This document shows, in pieces, positions 238 through 25,152 of a stretch of DNA of 27,103 bases. Made by a program: the position numbers and the translations under genes. Numbering within the stretch: position 1 is the stretch's first letter; the number at the start of each line of letters is the position of its first letter. This DNA comes from Promethearchaeati archaeon. Lineage in GTDB: Archaea > Asgardarchaeota > Heimdallarchaeia > JABLTI01. The DNA lies in NCBI GenBank assembly GCA_013166835.1, contig JABLTI010000065.1, positions 1 through 27,103 on the forward strand. Direction: 5' to 3'. The notes under the pieces were generated by a model. It was given only the letters and a program-made list of their open reading frames with translations, searched no databases and was not told where the DNA came from.

Positions 238-1226
238 CTAATTCCAAATAATATCTGTCTGTGTTCCACAGTTTTTACATAGGAAATCTTTTGTTAGGTT
301 TGTTGTGTTGGTAACATACCCGCTTCTTTTTACTACCAATGTTCCACAATTTTTACAGTGAGTATCATTACCTCGCTCGCCACGAATATTTCCTAAATAA
401 ACATACTGAACACCGGAACGAAGAGCCATATCTCTAGCTTTGAAAAGAGTATCAACAGGAGTTGCTGGGAGATCCACGTTATAATTCGGAAAGTATCGAG
501 AAAAGTGCAGAGGAACATCTGAACCAAGTTCAGTAACGACGAAATCGATTAGTTCTTGCAATTGTTCATCGGAATCATTCTTTGAGGTAACAATTAGATT
601 TGTTATTTCAAGGTGTACTTTTTGTTCTTTCATAATTTTGCAGGTTCTCAGAACGGCTTCTTGACGGGTAACACCACACATTTCCTTATAGAATCCCTTG
701 TCACCTTTCAAATCAACATTCGCACCGTCAATAAAAGGGAGTAGTTCTCTCAATGGTTCTTCTTCAATGTACCCATTTGTTACTAGGACATTTTTCAGTC
801 CTTTTTGATGAACGATTTTTGCAGTATCCAACACCCACTCATACCAAATCAAAGGTTCATTGTAAGTATAAGCAACAGTAGCACATCCAGATTGCACTGC
901 TTCCTTGGCAGCTTCTTTTGGCGATAGTTTTTTTAGACCATACAATTTTGACAGAATTGACAAAACAAATTACATCCAACCGTTCCATAACTATAAGCAC
1001 AACTACCTGGAAGAAAATGATACAGAGGTTTCTTCTCTATTGGATCCCTTGCCCCAGAAGTAGTTAACCCATAATTCGTAGAGTAGAGTTTTCCATCTGT
1101 ATTTATCCGAACATTGCATTTTCCTTTTTCACCTGGTTTTATTAGACAAAGATTCGGACATAATCTGCATTTCACTTTCGAATTTTTTTCTTCAGTGTAA
1201 TACATGGCATTGTGCAGATTAATCAT
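238..1226 (-). pseudogene. amrS: AmmeMemoRadiSam-type radical SAM enzyme, split by a frameshifting deletion near 942/943
   Basis: ORF 933..1232 carries CRLCPNLC...C, DPIEKKPLYHF and GCNLFCQFCQN. ORF 238..963 carries YTYNEP, LVTNGY, NVDLK, HFSRYFP, YVYLGN and C-terminal CxxC motifs. The usual WxISQ segment after CQN is missing. Likely start is ATG 1226. Confidence 0.85.
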
Positions 1227-1339
1227 ATACAAATTCCTCTAAGAGTACAAACATCGAAGTTGTTAATTAGTTAAACGGTTAGAAAATAAAAAGAAAAAAA
1301 GTTAGAATCCTTGAAGAAAATTTTTAAGAAGACAAAAAC

Positions 1340-3295
1340 CTAATTTCTGCGGTTTTTCTTGAGTTCTTTCTTTAATTTTTCATCAAGTTTCATTTCATAA
1401 TCTGTTATTCCTGCTTTGAACTTTTCAACAATACCTGAGTCATCCTTCACAAGTGCTGTTTCAAGAACTTCCCAGAATCTAGTAACGGGAACAATTTTTA
1501 CTTGGTCTTTCTTGTCCGCACCAAGGACAATGTCGCTGTAGTTTGCTAAGGGAACAATAACAGTTTTTATGCCAGCTTCGATTGCTGCTTCTGTTTTGAA
1601 AGTAGCACCACCAATTGGTAATACTTCTCCTCGAATAGATAGAGAACCAGTCATTGCTATATCCTGTCGAACTGGAATATTTGTTAGAGCTGAAACGACT
1701 GCAGTAGCAACAGACACACTTGCACTATCACCTTCAATTCCTTCGTAAGATTGCAGAAATTGAACGTGAACATCATGCCGAGAAAGATCAATACCAGTGT
1801 ATTTTTTAATAATTGCACTAACATTTAGAACAGATTCTTGGGCAATTTCACCCAATTTACCTGTAGCAATAATCTTTCCTTCTTGGCTACTGAGGGCGGG
1901 AGTTACTTCTGCTTCAACATTCATAACAATACCACTACGGTCACCCATGACTGCTAAAGCATTAACTCTACCAGTAATGGCTCCTTCATTTAGAATAATT
2001 TGATAGGATCGCCTATCAGCTATGAATTTTTCAGCAAGCTGTTGTTCTAATGGTCCTGCAAGAGTTTTAGCAGCAGTAACATGATCAACATTTACAACAG
2101 TTGCATTTTTTTCTCTAGCAACATCGCCAGCTGCACGAATTAATCCACCCATATCTCTAAACATTAAGGTTAAACCGTGTTTCCTTTTTGCTCGACGTCT
2201 AAATTCTCGGATAATTTCCTCAACTGCTTCTTTTGTAAAGTGTGGGATTCTGCCATCCTTTGATACTTCTTGAGCAACAAATCTCACTATTTTGTTTCGG
2301 TTTTCAAGGGTGTCAGGCATGTCTAAGTCCATATATACTTCATATCCATACCCACGAATTCGTGATCGAAGAGCTGGATGCATATTTGCCATAGTCGGCA
2401 AATTACCAGCGGCAATAAGTATGAAATCACAAGGAACAGGATCTGTTCGTACCATTGCACCACTGCTGAGCTCGCTTTGACCGGTTATTTGGAATTCTTT
2501 TTCTTGCATTGCTGTGAGTAATTGTTGTTGGGTTCTCATACCAAGAGTGCTAATTTCATCACAAAAGAGAACACCTTTGTGGGATTTATGAATAAGTCCG
2601 GATTCCACCCGTTCATGTGCAGGAGTTCCTAAACCACCAGATTGGAAAGGATCATGGCGTACGTCTCCTAAGAGAGCTCCAGCATGAGCACCAGTAGCAT
2701 CATTGAAAGGTGCATGAGTTTGTTGACTTGTATCAACAAGTAACTTCGGTACCAGGTTTTCAGACCGACTCCGTAATTGATTCATTATAAGGAATGAGAA
2801 GAACGAAACAAAGAGTCCCATTAAAACCAGTGTTGGTCGGCTATCAGGGTCGCTTAAAGGAACAAAAATTACATACAACATAACAGCTAATGGAATAATT
2901 AAACTAATGATCATTCGCAAGTTCTGCCCTTTAGCTGATTTCTCAGTATAACGATCAATAATACGTCGACCTTCTCCAGAACCAATAGTAACTATTTTTG
3001 GAGTATTTGGATCTTTTCGATTAGGAACACAAAGAATGTCTTCAAGATCCTCTCGAGGTAACAACTCTGCCATAGCTGCTCCAAGCATACTCTTTCCAGT
3101 TCCGGGTTCCCCAATTAAAAGCACATTCCTTCTTTGAATGGCTGCTTTCTTCACCAAGTCAACAGCTCGCTGTTGCCCCAAAACTTGATCAATGAGACGA
3201 GTTGGAACCGGAATCTCTGCAGTAGTTTTAATGCTAACATCAATTAATGGTTCATCTTTTGCTGTGTCAACTTTTTTTGTAGCAGATTTGGTCAT
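1340..3295 (-). CDS. lonB: Archaeal membrane-anchored ATP-dependent Lon protease (LonB)
   Basis: Walker A GEPGTGKS, two TM segments inserted in the AAA+ domain, DVRHDPFQSGG, Walker B LFCDEI, catalytic Ser in EGDSAS and Lys in GGATFK. Confidence 0.96.
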   Translation of the reverse strand: MTKSATKKVDTAKDEPLIDVSIKTTAEIPVPTRLIDQVLGQQRAVDLVKKAAIQRRNVLLIGEPGTGKSMLGAAMAELLPREDLEDILCVPNRKDPNTPKIVTIGSGEGRRIIDRYTEKSAKGQNLRMIISLIIPLAVMLYVIFVPLSDPDSRPTLVLMGLFVSFFSFLIMNQLRSRSENLVPKLLVDTSQQTHAPFNDATGAHAGALLGDVRHDPFQSGGLGTPAHERVESGLIHKSHKGVLFCDEISTLGMRTQQQLLTAMQEKEFQITGQSELSSGAMVRTDPVPCDFILIAAGNLPTMANMHPALRSRIRGYGYEVYMDLDMPDTLENRNKIVRFVAQEVSKDGRIPHFTKEAVEEIIREFRRRAKRKHGLTLMFRDMGGLIRAAGDVAREKNATVVNVDHVTAAKTLAGPLEQQLAEKFIADRRSYQIILNEGAITGRVNALAVMGDRSGIVMNVEAEVTPALSSQEGKIIATGKLGEIAQESVLNVSAIIKKYTGIDLSRHDVHVQFLQSYEGIEGDSASVSVATAVVSALTNIPVRQDIAMTGSLSIRGEVLPIGGATFKTEAAIEAGIKTVIVPLANYSDIVLGADKKDQVKIVPVTRFWEVLETALVKDDSGIVEKFKAGITDYEMKLDEKLKKELKKNRRN

Positions 3296-3622: not shown

Positions 3623-3676
3623 TATTAGGAAAAAAACCAATTCAATTATGTATATATGAATTTTTTGGTGACTAAG

Positions 3677-5551
3677 ATGAAAATTACAAAAAGTAAAACA
3701 TTAATCCTTGTAGGGGTTTTTATTACTCTTTTTGTTTTTAGCTCCGTAGGAGTACAACCAATAAAGACTGATGCAGCAGAGCCTGTGTTTTCTTTAGTGG
3801 CAAAGACAAATGGAGGAGGAGTTAGACCAGATTATCTTAACTTCCTCAAACAACACCTAGCAAGAATTAGAATAAATTTAGATGTAATCGTACAAGATTG
3901 GCCAACCTTTGTTGGTGAATTAATTGCTTTTAGGGACTTCGACGTTTGTTATGTTAGTCTAACTGGTGGCGGTGCAGACCCAGATTTCACTGGTGTCTAC
4001 GATGAAAACGCCTCACTCAACCTGTTTGGTTATCATACCAGTATGGACTGGGATGATGATAAAGATACTGGCCTTAATGAATGGTATATGAAGGAAGGCA
4101 CCTTAATTATGCCTCCAGACTCAGAAGAACGTGTACAACACTACTGGGCATGGCAACAATATTTCATGGATAAAATATGTCCTATGGCTCCAACATTTTC
4201 TCCAACAGGATATGGTGCACAATGGGCAAATTTGGTAGGGTATAATTATACTGATGGTATAGTTCCATCTTGGGGCAAAATGGATTTCGTTGGAACCCAC
4301 GCTGGTCAAGTTAATGCTGACGAATTAGTTAGAGTAGATGCTGCTTGGTCAGATTTCAATCCATTATTCCAAGATGATACTTCCTCAAGTTTCATTAGTA
4401 ATGCAGCACTAGACACTTTGATTACTTATGATGCAGATCTCAGCGTCTGGCCTAACTTAGCAGAGAGCTACACAATGTTAAACGATACTTGGTTAAGAAT
4501 AACAGCAAGACAAGGCATTCCTTGGGGAGATGATCCCGACGGATTGTTCCTCAGTGAAGAATTCGATATTTATGACGTTTACTTCACATTATATGCTTGG
4601 AAACACGTATCAAATGACCAACACTTATGGAATTGGGTTGAAGATATGGAAATCATCGATCAATGGACTATGGATATTTTCATTGATGGTGATGATTCAA
4701 CTCCTGAGAATGAACCATTCGCTCCGTTCCTACCAAGCCTTTGGACAAATATTCTTCCTGAACACTATTTGAATCAAACTCAATTAGCAGATGGAGTAAC
4801 TCCAGATATCACACATCCATCTTGGAATACTTTTGCAACTAACGTATTCGGTACTGATCTCTTCGAGATAAGCTCCTTTACAGAAGGTGTAGAAACTGTA
4901 CTCTCTCTAAAGACTGATTGTTGGAAATTCGATCCCGTTGTAACAGCTGATCCAGATTTGAACTGGGATGAAAGATTCGGTATCGTTACTGGTTGGGATG
5001 GTTTACATACCATAAGAATCAGAATTATGCCTGACCAACAAACCCAACTACTCGAATTTGAGGCAGGTAAGATTGATCTTATTCCTATTACCTGGAACCC
5101 AGACAAAAGAGACGAATATTTGGCAGATCCAGACTTTTCAGTACAATCTGATACACTATACGGTTTTGGTTTCTTCGGATTCAATATGCGAGAAGTGAGA
5201 CCAGTTATTGGCAGTCGTGCAGAAGCTCCACTTGATCCAACACTCACAGTTGGTCTTTGTGTAAGAAAAGCAATTGCTTTTGCTATTGACAGATTCGAAA
5301 TCAACAATGTTATTCATAGAGGTGAATACACAATCAGTGATACACCAATGTATCCAAAAATGGGTGTTTGGAATAATCCAAATATCATTCGCTACAACCA
5401 CGATATAGACAAAGCAAGATACTATATGACAGTAGCCGGTTATGATGTGGATTATACAATTGAAACCCCAGGCTTTGGCTTATGGATAACACTCTCTTCA
5501 TTAGTCGCAGTGGCAACTATTTCTTTGATCTTTATTAGAAAGAAAAAATAG
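3677..5551 (+). CDS. ABC transporter family-5 (OppA/DppA-like) solute-binding protein, circularly permuted, with N-terminal signal and PGF-CTERM-like C-terminal anchor
   Basis: Family-5 motifs FNPL, PNLAESY, DVYFT, EAGKID, VRKAIAFAIDR, DIDKAR..AGY, RDFD, DPD, EERV. C-terminus is TPGF + TM + RKKK. Start set at ATG 3677, which follows GGTG. Confidence 0.88.
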   Translation: MKITKSKTLILVGVFITLFVFSSVGVQPIKTDAAEPVFSLVAKTNGGGVRPDYLNFLKQHLARIRINLDVIVQDWPTFVGELIAFRDFDVCYVSLTGGGADPDFTGVYDENASLNLFGYHTSMDWDDDKDTGLNEWYMKEGTLIMPPDSEERVQHYWAWQQYFMDKICPMAPTFSPTGYGAQWANLVGYNYTDGIVPSWGKMDFVGTHAGQVNADELVRVDAAWSDFNPLFQDDTSSSFISNAALDTLITYDADLSVWPNLAESYTMLNDTWLRITARQGIPWGDDPDGLFLSEEFDIYDVYFTLYAWKHVSNDQHLWNWVEDMEIIDQWTMDIFIDGDDSTPENEPFAPFLPSLWTNILPEHYLNQTQLADGVTPDITHPSWNTFATNVFGTDLFEISSFTEGVETVLSLKTDCWKFDPVVTADPDLNWDERFGIVTGWDGLHTIRIRIMPDQQTQLLEFEAGKIDLIPITWNPDKRDEYLADPDFSVQSDTLYGFGFFGFNMREVRPVIGSRAEAPLDPTLTVGLCVRKAIAFAIDRFEINNVIHRGEYTISDTPMYPKMGVWNNPNIIRYNHDIDKARYYMTVAGYDVDYTIETPGFGLWITLSSLVAVATISLIFIRKKK

Positions 5552-7098: not shown

Positions 7099-8673
7099 TT
7101 ATTTCTTCCTCTTCTTACTCATTCTGTAAGATTTCGCTTGAACCATATCAGCTGAACGAGTAGCACCTGCTTCTTCCTCAGCCATGATTTCATCCATCTC
7201 TTCTAATTCATCGTCAAGATAGGCTTGTGCTGCTTTAGCTGCGGGAGCAGCTCTTGCTAAAGTTTGTCGCATATCAGCCATCATTTCTTTGCTTTTCTTA
7301 CGATCATTTTGCATGACTTGTGCTGCACGCTGAACAGTATATCCTGCGATTAAATCAGCATCGAGACTCTTTTCAAGCTCTTCTTTTATTTCAGATACTT
7401 CTAGTTCTTCTTCAATAACCCTAATTCGCTCATTATCGTCTTCGTCTTTGTAACGAATTTGGACTTGAACTGGAACTTTCTTGCGATCCTTGACACTCTT
7501 CTTTGGTTTGAATTCAAACGCTATAGAACGTGATTTAGTTAAACCACCGAGAGAGATATCATCTCCTCGTTTATAATCCAATTCTCTTGTTCCTGCTCCA
7601 CTTACTGTGGATAATTCGATTTCATCTGGAACAATAAGTTTGATTCGAGCATTGCGTCCAATGATTTCATCACCAGCAATCATACCAAAGCTGTCTTGAA
7701 GTTCCGATAAATCAGCATAGAATAAGTCTCCACCAGTAATTTCTGGCATGAGAGCCAAGGTCTTTAATTCAAGTGATCCTTGACCGGCTATTCCAACAAT
7801 ATCTAGAACGATACCGCTATCCTTCAATGCATTGCCAATCATTGTGTAGAATTTCTTCCCTTCTGGAGATGCTCCGGAAAGACTTCCGATTCCCTCATTA
7901 GCCATTCCATCTGTAAGAAGCAATACTCTACCTGTGCCAGCTACTAATGACATAATTCTTGCAGCTACGACTGCAGGGCCTAAGGCAGTAGAACTTAAGG
8001 CTTGCATTTTTTGAATGGTTCTTTGCCATTCCTTACCAGTAGATTTGATGGTCATCTTTGGTAACTGTTTCTTTACCCAGCTATTATTTGTAACTTCTTT
8101 CTCAATGGCTTTTACATCATATAGGATGTCGCCACCCAACACTAGAACTACTTCCCCATCTGGAGAATAAATTCGTAAGTTGCTTTCAAAAGTTACAAGA
8201 CCAAATAAAGCATCAGCTTTTGTTTTACCATATGCTTTGAGTGTTGATACAAGACTTTGTTTTACACCCTCAATCTTTGCACCACCCATTGAACCTGAGA
8301 CATCAAGAGCAGCAATCAAGGAATTACCTTTCTGAATTCCTTTGCCAAAGTCAGGTTTGGTAGTATCAGGAGGTATCAACCACCCGGAATAGGCATTTAT
8401 GTTGTGCGGTAAGTCTTTTGGATCGACCACATTGACTGTCCCACAGAATTGACAGTTAAAAAATGTGCCAACTTTTGCATCAGTTTGTACATCTTTGACG
8501 TTTGTTAAGATTGCTCCGCAATTGGAGCAGATAATAGGTTTCCCCTTTATCTCGTCTTTCGTTTCCTCAAATTCACTAAAGGAAACTTCACCAACAAGAG
8601 GAATATCCTTCAATAGTTTCTCCGACGCGGGAATTTTGTCTCCGGTGGAGAATTTCATGTGTTTATTCATCAT
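7099..8673 (-). CDS. Zn-finger + vWA protein of Sec23/Sec24-like architecture
   Basis: CSNCGA...CQFCGTVN Zn finger, vWA domain with DVSGS, TALGPA, LLTDG and TGG, then a beta-rich region and helical tail. Start uncertain (8673/8670/8658). Confidence 0.8.
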   Translation of the reverse strand: MMNKHMKFSTGDKIPASEKLLKDIPLVGEVSFSEFEETKDEIKGKPIICSNCGAILTNVKDVQTDAKVGTFFNCQFCGTVNVVDPKDLPHNINAYSGWLIPPDTTKPDFGKGIQKGNSLIAALDVSGSMGGAKIEGVKQSLVSTLKAYGKTKADALFGLVTFESNLRIYSPDGEVVLVLGGDILYDVKAIEKEVTNNSWVKKQLPKMTIKSTGKEWQRTIQKMQALSSTALGPAVVAARIMSLVAGTGRVLLLTDGMANEGIGSLSGASPEGKKFYTMIGNALKDSGIVLDIVGIAGQGSLELKTLALMPEITGGDLFYADLSELQDSFGMIAGDEIIGRNARIKLIVPDEIELSTVSGAGTRELDYKRGDDISLGGLTKSRSIAFEFKPKKSVKDRKKVPVQVQIRYKDEDDNERIRVIEEELEVSEIKEELEKSLDADLIAGYTVQRAAQVMQNDRKKSKEMMADMRQTLARAAPAAKAAQAYLDDELEEMDEIMAEEEAGATRSADMVQAKSYRMSKKRKK

Positions 8674-8772
8674 AATCACTGACCCTTTACTTTTCTCTTC
8701 ATATATAAAGACATTCAAATTGGATTTCCACTAAAAAAATGATTTTAAGAGGGTAAAAGCAGAAAAAGTAAA

Positions 8773-9843: not shown

Positions 9844-11334
9844 TTAAGCACTGACCTTCTTCGATCTCTCTTGGAGTTTAATTGTAACTATACTACCGAT
9901 AATCATTACAACAATAAGTATTGGTAAAAGAATGAGAGTTACTCGGGCATTTGTATCGTCTTGTTTTACTTGGTTTATCAAATGCCAAATAAAGATCCCA
10001 AGAAGTGATAAGGCCATAATAAAACCTAGAAGTGGGATTATGAAATTCGCTTTTATCTTCTTTCTGAGAACCAGACTTGACAATGAAATTATTGCAAATA
10101 ATATTAGAAAGATGGAGCTCGCTAGTTGAGCAATTTGAGCAAGATCTAAAACAAGTGTAAATATTAATGTTATGCCACTTATAGTTAAGATGCTAATAAA
10201 AGGAACTCTACTCTTTTTTGAAACGGTTTGAAAGAATTGTGGGAAGATTCGATCTCGAGCCATCACATAAGTCATTCGTGAAGAACCGAAAAGTGAGGCA
10301 TTAAAAGCACTTGCAGTTGAAAATAGTGCTCCTATTGAGACAATTATGAATCCTGCAGCTCCAAGGATTGGTGTCGCAGCAATTGCTAGAGCATATTCCG
10401 CTTTTTCTGGATCACTAGCAAATATCGTGTAATCAGTGCCACCTAATGCTGTAAATGCAACTAGAATGTAAATGATAGTTGCAATAATCACAGTACCATA
10501 GATTGATCGTGGAATGTTTTTTTCTGGATTTTGGATTTCTTCTGAAGCATTAGGAATGAGTTCCATCCCCTCAAATGCAACAAATAATATTGATGTTCCT
10601 ACGACAGCCATTGCTAAACCAGTAACTATATTGAGTTTATTTCCTTCAGCATCTGCAAAAAATGGTTTGAGATAGGTAATGTCTGGATCTATTATGTTCT
10701 TTATTACAGCTGGTATAGTGATCGCTACAAATCCAACTAGAATTATTACTTTAATTAAAACAATAATATTCTGTGATTTTCCCGTCTCCTTTACTCCAAC
10801 TAAATTTATGATTGTGGAGAGGATTATTAGAACTGCTGCGAAAACAGCCGATACTAGATTGGCGTGTGGTGAACCTTCAGGAAGAACCATATGAGCAAAA
10901 AACGCTCCAAAAGTGTAAGCATAAAGAGAACAAGATGTGAGATATCCTGTCCAGAGTAACCAACCAAAAGCTCCTCCAAAATATCTTCCAAACGCTTCTT
11001 TTGCAAAGGTATAACTTCCACCAGCGGATTGGAAACGTAAGGCAAGCTTTGCGTAAGAATAACCAATAAGAAGAGCTAAGACACCGCCAAAAGCAAAAGA
11101 GAGTATTGCTGCTGGACCTGCAAAACCTGCGGCAATCCCTAGAACACTGAAAACCCCTCCACCTATAGTTCCACCTAAACCAATGCTTAATGCTTCCTTA
11201 AACCCAAGTTCTCGAGATAATTCTCTTTCAGAGACAATGCTGGTTTCAGTGACTCCATGAGAATGAGAACTACTTTGGTCTTCTTTTCGTTTTAATTCGA
11301 GTTGACCAGTTGACTCATGGGGTGATTCGTCCAT
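9844..11334 (-). CDS. APC-superfamily amino acid permease
   Basis: About 12 TM segments, GGTIGGGVF, AGGSY, AFEGME, EEIQNPEKNIPR. Confidence 0.93.
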   Translation of the reverse strand: MDESPHESTGQLELKRKEDQSSSHSHGVTETSIVSERELSRELGFKEALSIGLGGTIGGGVFSVLGIAAGFAGPAAILSFAFGGVLALLIGYSYAKLALRFQSAGGSYTFAKEAFGRYFGGAFGWLLWTGYLTSCSLYAYTFGAFFAHMVLPEGSPHANLVSAVFAAVLIILSTIINLVGVKETGKSQNIIVLIKVIILVGFVAITIPAVIKNIIDPDITYLKPFFADAEGNKLNIVTGLAMAVVGTSILFVAFEGMELIPNASEEIQNPEKNIPRSIYGTVIIATIIYILVAFTALGGTDYTIFASDPEKAEYALAIAATPILGAAGFIIVSIGALFSTASAFNASLFGSSRMTYVMARDRIFPQFFQTVSKKSRVPFISILTISGITLIFTLVLDLAQIAQLASSIFLILFAIISLSSLVLRKKIKANFIIPLLGFIMALSLLGIFIWHLINQVKQDDTNARVTLILLPILIVVMIIGSIVTIKLQERSKKVSA

Positions 11335-11427: not shown

Positions 11428-12336
11428 TCAACACGCTTCCTTATGAAAAATAACTACCACCGGGCATTTACTTCTCTGATAGATTATATTTGTATCAGTT
11501 CCAAACAAACCAAAGAGTCTCCTAGGAACATAGGGAACACCCATAATGGATAAATCAGCATTCTCTTTGTTAAGATAATAACTGACAGATCGACCAACAT
11601 CACGACCGATAATTGCTTTTGTTTTCATAGGCCAAAGTAACATTGTGCTATACATACCCGCCTGCTTCACAAAATCCTTCTCTTCTTGAATGATCAATCT
11701 ATCATCATCAGGAATGATTGGTACGGTTTCAGGAACAGTAATAACATGAAGCAAAGTTATATCTGCATCTCGAGTTTCACCAGCATTAGCAATAGCAATG
11801 GCTATTTGGACTGCGGATACTTCACAGGGATTATTGGATCCGATGGGAACGACGATTTTTCTTGGTGACACATGAGAACCATAGGTCACCCAATCCTTTA
11901 TCGGTGAACGAATAATCATAACTGAAACTCTACTTCTTCGAGCAACACGTTCAGCAATACTACCTGCAAATCTTTGGAAAAGCCCTTTCCTTCTGCTCAT
12001 CATAATTACGAGTTTGGGAGATAATGCTCGAATTTCCTTAATAATAACATTATCAGGTCTTGATCTAGGATTATGATCTTTAATGTCGATATCTAATTTC
12101 ACGTTTAATTCTTGGGATTTCTCTTTTAACCACTCAATCTCTTTGAGAAAGAACTCTTCGGATCTCTTAGATTTATTTGCAATATGAAAAACATGCAAGT
12201 TGGTTCCAAAATACTCAGCTGTTACTAGAGCAATAAACATTGCATCACGTTCAGAGGGATACCCCATTAATGGGAGGAATATCTTATCACCTGGAGCACT
12301 AAATAATCCAGAATCTAATGAAATTTCACTACTCAT
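11428..12336 (-). CDS. Tandem universal stress protein (2x USP)
   Basis: Two USP repeats (KIFLP...GSIAERVARRSRVSVMII; KIVVP...GTDTNIIYQRSKCPVVV), upstream of the APC permease, a common archaeal pairing. Confidence 0.88.
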   Translation of the reverse strand: MSSEISLDSGLFSAPGDKIFLPLMGYPSERDAMFIALVTAEYFGTNLHVFHIANKSKRSEEFFLKEIEWLKEKSQELNVKLDIDIKDHNPRSRPDNVIIKEIRALSPKLVIMMSRRKGLFQRFAGSIAERVARRSRVSVMIIRSPIKDWVTYGSHVSPRKIVVPIGSNNPCEVSAVQIAIAIANAGETRDADITLLHVITVPETVPIIPDDDRLIIQEEKDFVKQAGMYSTMLLWPMKTKAIIGRDVGRSVSYYLNKENADLSIMGVPYVPRRLFGLFGTDTNIIYQRSKCPVVVIFHKEAC

Positions 12337-12519: not shown

Positions 12520-13143
12520 ATGCTAGTAGAAGGAAGGAAACTTTTGGCAGACACAACCGCAACATCAAGCTTCGATTTTCTTTTTAAAACCATAGTTGTA
12601 GGTGATGGTGCTGTTGGGAAAACTGCAATTACTTTTCGGTATGCTGTTGGCAAATTCCAAGAAAACTACAAAATGACCATTGGAGTAGATTTCACTATCA
12701 AACGAGAAAAAGTAAATGATAAGGATGTAAAAGTACAGGTCTGGGATACTGGTGGTCAAGAAAAATTCTCGAAAATACGTCCATTGTATTATCGAGGGGC
12801 TCTCGGAGGATTAGTAGTTTTTGATGTCACCTCAAGAGAATCATTTGATAATTTGGATGGTTGGATGGAGGAAATTCAAAAGAATTGTACGAAAATACCG
12901 ATTATTTTAGTGGGAAATAAAATCGATCTAAAGAATCGTAAAGTTACAAAGGAAGAAGGGAAGAAATACGCAGTAAAGCAATCAAAAGCAATGGGTTATA
13001 AAATCCCATATCTAGAAACCTCTGCAAAAACAGGTGAAACCATTAAGAAAGTCTTTCGTAAATTGATTGAATCAATGGTCGGTGGGGCAGAGGAATCTAT
13101 GAGAAGGAAAGAAGAAGCTAAAAAAGAAAAGAAGAAAAAATAA
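12520..13143 (+). CDS. Rab-like small GTPase
   Basis: GDGAVGKT, TIGVDF, WDTGGQEKF, YYRGA, GNKID, ETSAK. Real start may be TTG 12544, after GGAAGG. Confidence 0.95.
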   Translation: MLVEGRKLLADTTATSSFDFLFKTIVVGDGAVGKTAITFRYAVGKFQENYKMTIGVDFTIKREKVNDKDVKVQVWDTGGQEKFSKIRPLYYRGALGGLVVFDVTSRESFDNLDGWMEEIQKNCTKIPIILVGNKIDLKNRKVTKEEGKKYAVKQSKAMGYKIPYLETSAKTGETIKKVFRKLIESMVGGAEESMRRKEEAKKEKKKK

Positions 13144-13216
13144 TCAAAAGAAGCGTTCTTGCAATAAGAACCCTTCCACCAAGTTTCCCTCGGCTTTTGA
13201 ATATTGAACGAAATTT

Positions 13217-13360
13217 CTATGGACCAGAATCTAGTAGTGGTGGAGCTTCATCTGGGGGTCCAATAGTTAATGTGGTTGTTACCCAGAGAATCATCATTGC
13301 ACCGAAAAGCAAGATCGCACTCAATCGTTTGTTTTTGAAGAGTTTTTTCATTTTATTCAT
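13217..13360 (-). CDS. Putative 47-aa secreted or membrane-anchored peptide
   Basis: MNKMKKLFKNKRLSAILLFGAMMILWVTTTLTIGPPDEAPPLLDSGP. GGAGGT lies directly upstream and a TATA-like TTTTAAATA about 50 nt upstream. Below the ORF-track cutoff. Confidence 0.65.
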   Translation of the reverse strand: MNKMKKLFKNKRLSAILLFGAMMILWVTTTLTIGPPDEAPPLLDSGP

Positions 13361-13526
13361 TGACCTCCGCAAGGAGAAATTTTCTCAAGTGAACCCCTAG
13401 GATTTTTTATTTAAAAAGATACAAATCTCAAAATTCTGAGGTAAAAAGAAGGAAAGAAAAAAAAATTAGCGTAAGAAAAAAGGCTTTATCCTTTTCTCTT
13501 AAACTTCGATTGATTTTTTTGAAATG

Positions 13527-14513
13527 TTATGACATATTAACTAGTTTTAGAAGATGGGCCCATTCTTTGTCGACTTCTTCTTGGAATCTAGCGATTAAGT
13601 CTTCACGTTTTTTTGGTCGGAATAAGTGTCTAAATCTACCTTGTCCCTTCAAGTATTCTTCAACTGGAAGTTTTCTTTCGGGCTTATTAGCAATAGCTTT
13701 GCTTTTCGGATTAAGGACATATTCTTTACCATTGTAAACTTCGTAGATTGGGAAGTAACAAGAATCAATTGCTTGTTGTGCTATTTTGATTGATAATTCC
13801 TCTGGGAATCTCCAACCTCTAGGACAAGGCATATCAATCAATATGAACGCTGGTCCATCGACATCAAGTGCTCTTCTCACTTTAGTCATCATATCACGAT
13901 GAGCTGCGGGAGAAGCGGTTGCAACATAAGGTACTTTGTGTGCAGCAGCGATTGCTACTAGGTCTTTTCTCCACTGGATTTTTCCAGGGATAACTTTTCC
14001 AGCAGGGGAAGTTGTAGTTGAGGCGTACATTGGGGTTCCACCAGAACGCTGAATACCGGTGTTCATGTAAGCACCATTAGTGTAGCAGATGTAAACAAAA
14101 TCGTGTCCTCGTTCTAAAGCTCCGCTGAGTGATTGTAACCCAATATCATAAGTTCCACCATCACCAGCGAAAGCAATGATGTCTGGTACTTTCTTTAGTT
14201 TGCCTTTCTTTACCATCACTTTGTATGCTGCTTCTGCTCCGGAAGCGGTTGCAGCAACGTTTTCAAATGCGTTGTGGAACCAAGGAAGTCTCCAAGCGGT
14301 AAATGGATAAATAGTTGTCGCGACTTCCATACAACCAGTTGCATGGAAAATACAAACATCATCAGGTTCGGTAACAAGAGTTGCACATCGAGCGATAGTT
14401 CCTGCGGTACAACCAGCACAAAGTCTGTGACCAGGAGCTAAGCGATTTTCTTTTCTCATTAGTTCCTTTGCTTTTGGGATTCTTACTTTCTTTAATTCTT
14501 CAGTAGTAACCAT
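13527..14513 (-). CDS. porB: Pyruvate/2-oxoacid:ferredoxin oxidoreductase beta subunit
   Basis: GHRLCAGC, ATGC, GDGGTYDIG TPP motif, YMNTGIQRS, PCPRGW. Confidence 0.94.
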   Translation of the reverse strand: MVTTEELKKVRIPKAKELMRKENRLAPGHRLCAGCTAGTIARCATLVTEPDDVCIFHATGCMEVATTIYPFTAWRLPWFHNAFENVAATASGAEAAYKVMVKKGKLKKVPDIIAFAGDGGTYDIGLQSLSGALERGHDFVYICYTNGAYMNTGIQRSGGTPMYASTTTSPAGKVIPGKIQWRKDLVAIAAAHKVPYVATASPAAHRDMMTKVRRALDVDGPAFILIDMPCPRGWRFPEELSIKIAQQAIDSCYFPIYEVYNGKEYVLNPKSKAIANKPERKLPVEEYLKGQGRFRHLFRPKKREDLIARFQEEVDKEWAHLLKLVNMS

Positions 14514-18162: not shown

Positions 18163-20337
18163 TTGTCAAAAGAAGATATTGATAAAATAAAAGAAATAGA
18201 AATGCAATTGTATAAAGGATTCTACAAAGAAGCTTATCATTCCTTAGATGTAGCTATAAAGGATAAGAAAAAACCCTTGGAATACTGCTTAAAATTCATG
18301 CTTTTGAAATCCAAGCTTTTGATTAAGTTGGGAGAATTTGATGAGTGCTTATCACTCGTAAATGAGGTAATAGATAAAATAATCCCTGAAACAGATTTGT
18401 TTGGGAAAATTGATTTCCTTATTCAAAAAGCAGAAGCTTTGGAGCAGTTAGCTGATTTTGATGAGGAATTTAAGATTATTACTAGAATAGAAGAATTGAT
18501 ATCTGAAGTTGAGGGAAAACCGGAGAAAATCGATAATTGGTTAGGGCATCTACATAGATTAAAAGGATGGTATAACGTAAATAAAACAAAATTTGATGAA
18601 GCCTTTGATCACCTCCGACTTAGTCTAGAGATTTTTGAAAGAAATAATGATAAAGAAAATATGGCACAAGTAATTGTCTTATTGGGTAGTCTACACTTGA
18701 GGAAGGGAGAACGAAACAAAGGCTTAGAACTCTATCAGATAAATCTGAAGATGAGAGAGGAAATAGGTAATCAAGAGGATATTGCATTAGCTTTACGATA
18801 CATTGGTGTTTACTATTCCTTTACTCGAGATTTTTCAGAAGCGCTTTCTTATTATGACAGATGTTTACCCATCTTAGAGAAAAGTGAAAATAAGCGTCAT
18901 CGAGGAAACTTGTATAATTCCCTAGGACTTACATATTATCATCTAGGAGATATAAACCAAGCAATTGAGTTTTATGAATTAGCATTATTCTATTTGCAAC
19001 AAGTTGGAAGTAAATTACAAATTGCTTATCTTCTGTCAAATATAGGATCAGTGGAACAGCTGCGAGGTAATCTAGATAAAGCTCTGGGAGCGCATTTACA
19101 ATGTTTAAAAATTTTTGATGAAGTCAATAGTATCCAAAATATTGGTGCTCAACTCCTCTATATTGGAAGAACTTATCTGAGAATGGGTGAACATAAAAAA
19201 GCGCTTTTATTTCTTGATCAAGCAGTGAAATATCGAAGAAAGACAGGAAACAACACATTCATAGCTAATGGGTTATATTCATTGATAAATTACTACACAT
19301 TCATTAATAATGTTGAAGAAGCAAAGAAACATTTCCAAGAATTAAAACAAATAAATAAATTAGAAGAGAATCCGTTAATTGTTCAACGAACAAAAATAGC
19401 TGAAGCACTAATTTTGAAACTTGATAAGCGAAGCAAGAGTAGAGTAAGAGCTGAAGAACTTCTTGAACAAGTTATTGACATGGAATTAATCGATTTCAAC
19501 ATGTATTTGGATGCTATGCTTAATTTATGCGAATTATATGTAATTGAAATTAAACTGACAGGGAATCAGGAAGTTCTCAAAGAGATAAAGATTCTTTTAG
19601 AAAAATTGTTTGTTATTTCAATGCAACAACAATCGTTTTGGGTGCTCGCACAAGTTCATTGGATTCAAGCACATCTCGCTCTAATTGATTGGGATATTAA
19701 TAAAGCTCAGAGATCTTTGACAGAAGCTCAAATTATTGCTGAAGAAAAAGGGTTCAATCATCTAGCAAAACGAATCTCTCAAGAATTTGATAAAACATTA
19801 AATCAAATGGGTTTGTGGGAGCAATTACGGGAAAGCAATGCCTCTATAATTCAGAGAATTGAAGTAACACAATTAGACGATCTCCTAGGTAAATTAAAAC
19901 AACAAATCTTTGATCTCGATGATTTACCTTCAGAACAACCTGTTATGCTCCTTATTTTAAAACAAACTGGTCAACCAATATACAATAAAAATTTCATACC
20001 AAGTAAGTTTAGCAAAGATGAATCATTGTTCAGTGGCTTTATTAGTTCCATTAATGCCTTTTTCAAAGAAGTTTTTGAAACATCGGGTTCAATTGAAAGA
20101 ATAAAGCACCAAGATTTGACTGTTCTCTTAAAACCAGTTGATTCTGTTCTCTTTTGCTATGTTTTCAAAGGGCAATCATATTCAGCTATAAAGAAGCTGG
20201 AAGAGTTCATTCTAATGCTACAAAATAAAAATGTAAGAGTATGGAAAGCACTTCAGAAACAGATTGAGACAACAGCTCCATTAGAGGACCACATTTTTCA
20301 GATTTTAGACGATGAAATATCTGATGTATTTGCGTAA
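18163..20337 (+). CDS. TPR-repeat protein with C-terminal longin-like domain
   Basis: Multiple ~40-aa TPRs (e.g. LYNSLGLTYYHLGDINQAIEFYELAL). C-terminal LLILKQTGQPIY...LFSGFISSINAFFKEV...IERIKH pattern resembles Asgard longin-like domains. Confidence 0.8.
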   Translation: MSKEDIDKIKEIEMQLYKGFYKEAYHSLDVAIKDKKKPLEYCLKFMLLKSKLLIKLGEFDECLSLVNEVIDKIIPETDLFGKIDFLIQKAEALEQLADFDEEFKIITRIEELISEVEGKPEKIDNWLGHLHRLKGWYNVNKTKFDEAFDHLRLSLEIFERNNDKENMAQVIVLLGSLHLRKGERNKGLELYQINLKMREEIGNQEDIALALRYIGVYYSFTRDFSEALSYYDRCLPILEKSENKRHRGNLYNSLGLTYYHLGDINQAIEFYELALFYLQQVGSKLQIAYLLSNIGSVEQLRGNLDKALGAHLQCLKIFDEVNSIQNIGAQLLYIGRTYLRMGEHKKALLFLDQAVKYRRKTGNNTFIANGLYSLINYYTFINNVEEAKKHFQELKQINKLEENPLIVQRTKIAEALILKLDKRSKSRVRAEELLEQVIDMELIDFNMYLDAMLNLCELYVIEIKLTGNQEVLKEIKILLEKLFVISMQQQSFWVLAQVHWIQAHLALIDWDINKAQRSLTEAQIIAEEKGFNHLAKRISQEFDKTLNQMGLWEQLRESNASIIQRIEVTQLDDLLGKLKQQIFDLDDLPSEQPVMLLILKQTGQPIYNKNFIPSKFSKDESLFSGFISSINAFFKEVFETSGSIERIKHQDLTVLLKPVDSVLFCYVFKGQSYSAIKKLEEFILMLQNKNVRVWKALQKQIETTAPLEDHIFQILDDEISDVFA

Positions 20338-24618: not shown

Positions 24619-25152
24619 ATGGCATTCTTTCTAAGACTATTCAGAAAAAAGAAACAAGCAAACATGACAATATGTGGGTTGGATAAAGCCGGAAAAACAT
24701 CTGTAGTTAATTACTTGATGCATGGAGAGAATAGAGAAACAATCCCAACAATGGGCGTAAATGTAAATACAGTAAACCTACCAAAACTTGATATTCACAT
24801 ATATGATCTCGGAGGACAGGAAGGATTCCGCCCACTCTGGTCGGATATTAATGAGAGATCACAAGCAATTGTTTACATTGTAGATTGTACTGACTTCGAG
24901 CGATTTGAATTAACAAAAAACATCTTTCATGACATCATTGATGCTCAAATTGATGACAATGTTCCAGTGTTGATTTTATTAAATAAAATAGATTTGCCTA
25001 ACAGAATGTCTCGAGCAGATTTCATTTACCACTTTGGATTATTGGATCTCAAGAATACTACCTGGTCTTGTTATGAAACTTCAGCCATGACCGGGGGAGG
25101 ATTAATTGAAGCATTCACTAGTTTTATTCATAAATTAGAAGACGAAGCATGA
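24619..25152 (+). CDS. Arf/Arl-like small GTPase
   Basis: N-terminal amphipathic MAFFLRLF, GLDKAGKT, TIPTMG, DLGGQ, RPLW, NKID, TSA. Confidence 0.93.
   Translation: MAFFLRLFRKKKQANMTICGLDKAGKTSVVNYLMHGENRETIPTMGVNVNTVNLPKLDIHIYDLGGQEGFRPLWSDINERSQAIVYIVDCTDFERFELTKNIFHDIIDAQIDDNVPVLILLNKIDLPNRMSRADFIYHFGLLDLKNTTWSCYETSAMTGGGLIEAFTSFIHKLEDEA

Follow-up and report, generated by a model that had tools for sequence, protein, structure and literature searches.

The DNA between porB and a Ras-family GTPase gene in a Heimdallarchaeia contig (JABLTI010000065.1, assembly GCA_013166835.1; the window referred to below is the whole 27,103-nt stretch analysed) holds a short minus-strand ORF, and the locus raises two questions: whether this ORF is a gene at all and, if it is, whether its product is released as a signal or stays in the membrane. 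An earlier note, made from the sequence alone, had described an unannotated exported peptide of 47 residues, likened its layout to that of Phr/PapR-like signalling precursors, and named a small membrane protein as the alternative. No part of archaeal genomes is less well understood than their microproteins, and here is one that no genome of a Heimdallarchaeia family has lost; its gene offers a cheap, well-defined handle for Asgard cell biology.

The ORF extends over positions 13217-13372 and reads 51 residues from a TTG, or 47 from the ATG at 13360. The ORF of the earlier note thus exists, and it lies on the minus strand; the start shared by all relatives is a different one, the ATG at 13351, which leaves 44 residues. 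The ATG at 13360 is not common to all relatives and stands just 2 nt from the GGAGGT that precedes it. One relative (G008) has an in-frame TGA immediately before the codon aligned to ATG 13351, two others (G009 and G006) lack any ATG earlier than the aligned one, and a fourth (G011) has GTG at the aligned position; together these relatives fix the start at ATG 13351. The features discussed below are collected in Table 1.

Table 1. Positions of the small gene, its putative signals and other genes in the window (strand given as + or -; a dot where no strand applies).
Feature	Position	Strand	Remarks
44-aa microprotein CDS	13217-13351	-	codons 13351-13220, stop TAG 13219-13217; sequence MKKLFKNKRLSAILLFGAMMILWVTTTLTIGPPDEAPPLLDSGP
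In-frame ATG further upstream	13358-13360	-	47-aa start of the earlier note and of some gene callers
Shine-Dalgarno-like GGAGGT	13363-13368	-	11 nt before ATG 13351
TATA/BRE-like A/T-rich block	13402-13426	-	core TTTAAATA at 13415-13408, about 60 nt 5' of ATG 13351
Hairpin, stem GTTCTT/AAGAAC	13155-13171	.	in the 73-nt spacer separating the convergent genes
porB	13527-14513	-	closes porGDAB (16646-13527); same strand as the small gene and 175 nt upstream of it
Ras-family small GTPase gene	12520-13143	+	Pfam Ras E 4.4e-55; convergent, downstream of the small gene
APC amino-acid permease gene	9844-11334	-	
Double-USP protein gene	11428-12336	-	adjoins the permease gene
Sec23/24-like protein gene	7099-8718	-	Sec23_BS E 1.3e-8, trunk E 3e-6
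Arf-family GTPase gene	24619-25152	+	
Family-5 SBP gene (SBP_bac_5)	3656-5551	+	7.7 kb from the small gene
TPR gene	18163-20337	+	4.8 kb from the small gene

By the way its sequence has been preserved, the small ORF is a real and strongly conserved gene of one Heimdall-type Asgard family. It is intact in 12/12 genomes of that family (f1, made up of the window's genome, ten others from its genus and one from a sister genus, with completeness of 64-92%); when 41 close-relative genomes were searched, all 12 matched at E 3.8e-8 or better and without stops, and matches outside the family reached E 0.08 or worse. Pairwise comparison of the 12 coding sequences gives 635, 281 and 1430 differences at codon positions 1, 2 and 3, and dN/dS (Nei-Gojobori) is 0.03-0.33 where dS is computable, synonymous sites being saturated in many pairs. 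Residues G31-P38 of the tail are fixed save for one D-to-E change while their codons vary (four for Gly, four for Ala, up to three for Pro), which argues for selection at the level of the peptide rather than of DNA or RNA. On the plus strand, the overlapping frame (13197-13400) is broken by a stop in two of the 12 genomes. The shortness of the ORF, and the fact that metatranscriptome contigs (runs X9 and X19) include porB, porA and a stretch of the GTPase gene but not the ORF, would fit a chance ORF inside a conserved non-coding spacer; one 257-nt contig does span 13106-13362, but its source library is probably DNA. Against that reading stand the third-position bias, the low dN/dS and a frame left intact in all 20 loci known to us despite saturated synonymous change, and its probability is in our judgement close to negligible.

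The position between a Rab-like gene and porB, as first described, was recovered wherever the gene was found. The small ORF is flanked by porB and by the convergent GTPase gene, whose product has a polybasic C-terminus, in 20/20 loci, 12 from genomes and eight from metagenomes. The latter came from a motif scan that returned ten loci, eight of them true, each with porB upstream and the GTPase gene downstream; the other two, in DNA of 68-70% G+C, were set aside as chance hits. The longer metagenome loci go on with a USP-domain gene, an APC permease, an unknown gene and a Sec23-like gene, matching the window, and the permease is the sole membrane protein encoded in this conserved block. Since all 20 loci belong to one lineage, the linkage may reflect mere descent, and the synteny is uninformative. 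Of the 19 porB loci belonging to other families in the class, none had a membrane-type small ORF or a GTPase gene downstream. As separate observations on the window, eukaryote-like genes are clustered in it (Sec23/24-like, Ras-family and Arf-family), and it also encodes archaeal Nre and LonB. The permease and the adjoining double-USP protein look like a split form: of the permease's more distant archaeal homologs (identity about 30-38%), many are one protein of 740-790 residues with a fused USP domain.

Within the collections searched, the microprotein is confined to, and universal in, one Heimdallarchaeia family. A class-wide profile search of 83 genomes matched 12/12 f1 genomes, and the best match in the other 71 (E 0.02) involved the hydrophobic part only, such matches lying mostly within long frames. 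Extended to 400 genomes of the phylum, the profile recovered the same 12 and gave no credible match in the other 388; one weak match (E 1.5e-4, positions 1-28) was not counted, as it sits within a 582-aa frame. The orthologs with a conserved tail that the earlier note had called for thus exist (12/12 family genomes and the 22 protein clusters described below, all with GPP[D/E]EAPP), and paralogs do not appear in the genome itself: a protein search there returned the ORF alone, with the next match at E 1.8, and a six-frame translation holds no second copy of the tail motif.

Among 1.84 billion representative proteins, five were hit by the profile at E 0.001 or better, four of them 44-53 residues long with the layout of the microprotein. 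The fifth, a 2100-aa repeat protein (P0005), is covered at profile positions 26-44 only, and we regard it as a chance or convergent short motif; it is an Ala/Gly-rich, surface-type protein whose repeats hold DLDEAAPVITSGP-like strings resembling the tail. Likeness to the linkers of cadherin-type repeats consists in these strings, the sole match outside the family in the 1.84 billion representatives. A collection of 5.8 billion proteins yielded 22 clusters (43-53 aa, E 1.3e-22 to 5.1e-15), named 'hypothetical protein' wherever a name is given and labelled Heimdallarchaeota or 'Asgard group', plus one Thorarchaeota and one Bathyarchaeia. No longer or fused form scored among 8000 candidates, which counts as weak evidence. 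No relative was found in Pfam, NCBIfam or the PDB sequences, nor any structure match above a score of 0.78 in the ESM Atlas; the best of these weak family and structure results were E 0.0058 (for one member), E 0.03, E 0.24 and that score of 0.78. Two of the 22 members touched the synaptobrevin profile at E 0.18, which we read as membrane-anchor likeness. The string PPDEAPP did not occur in the literature searched, and a search on small transmembrane proteins of Heimdallarchaeia brought up nothing that looked related, as judged by titles and the beginnings of abstracts. On these comparisons we would place the microprotein as a new family within a known kind, presumably closest in its working to bacterial one-helix microproteins and tail-anchored proteins, and related to none of them by sequence. 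The exact 47-aa and 44-aa sequences are already public, and cluster members are entered as 'hypothetical protein' of Candidatus Heimdallarchaeota MAGs, so that the gene is better called unnamed than, as in the earlier note, unannotated. As matters stand, its product counts as a hypothetical protein that is specific to one family and uncharacterised, rather than as a proven new system.

The signals expected of an independently expressed gene can be recognised around the ORF. Both the strong GGAGGT and the TATA-like box attributed to it are present and conserved in relatives: GGAGG is found upstream of the start in 12/12 genomes, and the TATA-like block is the best-conserved part of the spacer between porB and the small ORF in the same 12. 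Given the usual archaeal distance from TATA to start, the gene seems to be transcribed from a promoter of its own, with a 5' UTR of some 30-35 nt. The hairpin between the convergent genes is likely a terminator; a T-rich run comes next on the minus strand, and the hairpins of relatives differ in sequence and not in place. A second candidate structure, in which UCUCC-N4-GGAGG (13363-13377, minus strand) would mask the Shine-Dalgarno element, was rejected: it folds no better than shuffled sequences in five of six cases tested (z of -2.5 in one, -1.1 to +0.45 in the others), and its sequence is kept within the genus and absent in the sister genus.

The tripartite layout first described, a basic N-region, a hydrophobic core and an acidic Pro-rich tail, is common to 22/22 clusters. 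In the window's protein, residues 1-9 are basic (+5), 10-30 hydrophobic and 31-44 form the tail, GPPDEAPPLLDSGP. Over all 22 clusters the net charge of the N-region is +2 to +7 and that of the tail -2 to -3, and the core is uncharged, 18-21 residues long, with a mean Kyte-Doolittle hydropathy of 2.0-3.1. The helix is conserved in character and not in sequence; in the tail G31, P32, P33, E35, A36, P37 and P38 are invariant and D34 is present in over 90%, with a C-end that is mostly FITPGP and, in the window's clade, LLDSGP. AlphaFold2, run on the 22-row alignment, predicted a helix at 8-29 with pLDDT of about 90 (blocks of 92 and 89) and a tail of non-regular coil (pLDDT 56-69). Both a membrane-spanning helical segment and a charge bias that would fix its orientation, as sought in a small single-pass membrane protein, are thus present, and the uncharged helix of 18-21 residues together with the bias in 22/22 clusters favours the membrane-protein alternative of the earlier note. 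The product is most likely a tiny single-pass membrane protein with an unvarying Pro-rich outer tail.

More specifically, we hold it somewhat more probable than its negation that the microprotein is uncleaved, lies N-in/C-out and uses its outer tail to dock onto a conserved partner; we infer the topology from the positive-inside rule, and the absence of cleavage and the docking role from the patterns of conservation. The basic N-end would remain cytoplasmic, residues from about 8 to 30 would form the one membrane helix, and the 14-residue acidic Pro-rich tail (GPP[D/E]EAPP, then mostly FITPGP) would be a stiff, extended segment at the outer face. Given the length of the ribosomal tunnel, a 44-residue chain is complete and released before its helix can emerge, so that insertion would have to follow translation, as it does for tail-anchored proteins and the small membrane proteins of bacteria. 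The clearest signal in these data is that the helix drifts while the Pro-rich tail is frozen, as would be expected if a specific reader recognised the tail on the outer side of the membrane, and the eight-residue surface motif has stayed unchanged while synonymous sites are saturated, so that something specific must read it. We therefore favour a role in which the tail docks onto a conserved protein of the membrane or cell surface, the microprotein serving as an accessory or regulatory subunit.

There is precedent for proteins of this kind. MgrB and AcrZ are bacterial small membrane proteins with a single helix. With these, with YohP and with tail-anchored proteins the microprotein shares a length of fewer than 50 residues, one hydrophobic helix, a basic and presumably cytoplasmic end, a short conserved tail that would lie outside, a chain too short for co-translational targeting and, as a proposal, the role of accessory subunit. 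Unlike them it is archaeal and occurs in a single family; searches showed no relation in sequence, and its invariant Pro-rich tail found no counterpart among them. Small one-helix proteins inserted post-translationally are treated as an established class in work on such proteins (PMC7549839, PMC12648545), which includes YohP as a bacterial small single-helix membrane protein (PMC7549839).

The same layout can be read as a secretory precursor, in which a Sec signal peptide would be removed by signal peptidase and a Pro-rich extracellular peptide of 14-17 residues released to act as a signal, as a ligand of a binding protein or otherwise. The positive n-region, present in 22/22 clusters, the hydrophobic region and the short tail all look like those of pro-peptides, the part set free would be the most conserved part, and the best PDB match, itself weak (E 0.24), is to a signal peptide. 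A surface-anchored family-5 SBP is encoded in the window, with a paralog within about 8-12 kb in three of five relatives, but the window has no ABC permease genes flanking it. Signal-peptide h-regions usually span about 7-15 residues, with small residues at -1 and -3, and the core of 18-21 residues is long by this measure. The A-x-A site is absent, and no consistent cleavage site recurs across the 22 clusters. A cut directly ahead of GPP is unlikely, since I, V or M occupies the position before it in 21/22 clusters, and a cut one residue further on, behind the Gly, would leave Pro at +1, a residue that blocks signal peptidase I there. In 20/22 clusters a weak T-x-T/A pattern at -3 relative to GPP could be a signal-peptidase site, and for this reason a released 17-mer is kept in consideration, although Thr at -1 makes a poor site. 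A class III (pilin-type) signal, cleaved at [KR][GA], was also considered and set aside, the residues after the basic cluster not being conserved as that motif. The known peptide-signal families of bacteria diversify, whereas this tail is invariant across the family and without paralogs. Taking both sides together, we regard release of the tail as unlikely. Its most far-reaching form, a cleavable helix from which an invariant (LTI)GPPDEAPPFITPGP peptide is freed as an extracellular signal or ligand, seems to us decidedly improbable; if it were true, it would mean peptide-based communication or surface recognition in an Asgard archaeon, through a receptor unrelated to bacterial RRNPP proteins.

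The particular likeness to Phr/PapR-like precursors is not supported by these comparisons. RRNPP pro-peptides (Phr, PapR, AloP) do share with the microprotein an n-region, a hydrophobic region and a short tail, and they differ from it in that the latter has no adjoining TPR receptor gene, an invariant tail, a single copy, a long hydrophobic core and an archaeal host. Pro-peptides of this type are also exported, cleaved and taken up again by an oligopeptide permease; the window offers a lone SBP_bac_5 gene with no permease genes next to it. RRNPP receptors are described as having a C-terminal TPR domain, with the pro-peptide gene immediately downstream in a two-gene operon (PMC7425212); the neighbours here are porB and the GTPase gene in 20/20 loci. 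The SBP and TPR genes that had been pointed out do occur in the window, the TPR gene on the other strand, past the por genes and a TauE gene. Co-occurrence with TPR genes, which the earlier note had proposed to look for, did not emerge: the best match to the TPR gene shares a contig with the small gene in one of the five relatives checked (G005), and a TPR match adjoins porG in one of eight metagenome loci (L065). By eye the TPR protein has neither a signal sequence nor a membrane segment and would be cytoplasmic, and so could not meet an outward-facing tail.

Two further readings take the conserved tail as their starting point. If a dedicated enzyme (a protease, or a glycosyl- or lipid-transferase) and not a stable partner recognised GPP[D/E]EAPP, the microprotein would be a membrane-anchored substrate or sorting tag, for which speak the invariance of the motif at the membrane boundary while codons vary and the use of C-terminal sorting signals in this genome, as in the SBP with its PGF-type motif, membrane segment and RKKK. 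An archaeosortase (PGF-CTERM) signal forms the C-end of a larger protein, with motif, helix and basic cluster following one another in that order. The microprotein resembles such signals in its Pro/Gly motif, single membrane helix and basic cluster, but here the elements run the other way round (basic, helix, motif) and make up the entire protein, no longer form having been found among 8000 scored candidates, and the motif is unique in the genome, so that an enzyme reading the tag would have a single substrate; an archaeosortase signal proper was rejected on these grounds. With no candidate enzyme linked to the gene either, a substrate or tag appears improbable. It has also to be asked whether the act of translation, and not its product, might matter, the GPP-D and A-PP runs stalling ribosomes in an aIF5A-dependent manner. 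Pro-Pro runs of this kind stall ribosomes in bacteria, and the tail has two. However, no gene follows on the same strand, the next one being convergent, and the basic N-end and hydrophobic helix, which a stall element would not need, are conserved as well, which leaves this explanation very improbable. A ribosome-arrest monitoring peptide of the SecM/MifM type, in which the regulated gene lies directly downstream on the same strand, was rejected in view of the convergent downstream gene. The uncleaved membrane protein with a docking tail remains the reading we prefer.

Some features of the other genes named above may be recorded in their own right. The SBP is, by eye, exported and membrane-anchored, with an N-terminal signal-like segment and a C-end of TPGFG, a hydrophobic segment and RKKK, which presumably resembles a PGF-CTERM archaeosortase signal; it is multi-copy, with up to 18 matches. 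The TPR protein, of 724 residues, ends in a stretch of about 150 residues outside the TPR domain, and its paralogs form a large family: one relative has as many as 16 matches, several of which contain internal stops. At seven porB loci of another family in the class (L043, L044, L045, L048, L049, L054 and L056), which are among the best-matching porB loci, porB is followed on the same strand, after 54-200 nt, by a soluble and well-conserved ORF of 54-74 codons whose sequence is unrelated to the microprotein. In porB homologs of another family in the class, the window's porB matches in two pieces within one frame of about 690-700 residues. At one such locus (L062; G061:C74:6500-9100, ORF 251-2335, minus strand) an intein, absent from the window's porB, lies in the TPP-binding domain (Pfam Intein_splicing E 6.4e-16, LAGLIDADG_3 E 3.8e-5), and the two-piece match is seen also in G012, G024, G028, G040, G047, G050 and G054.
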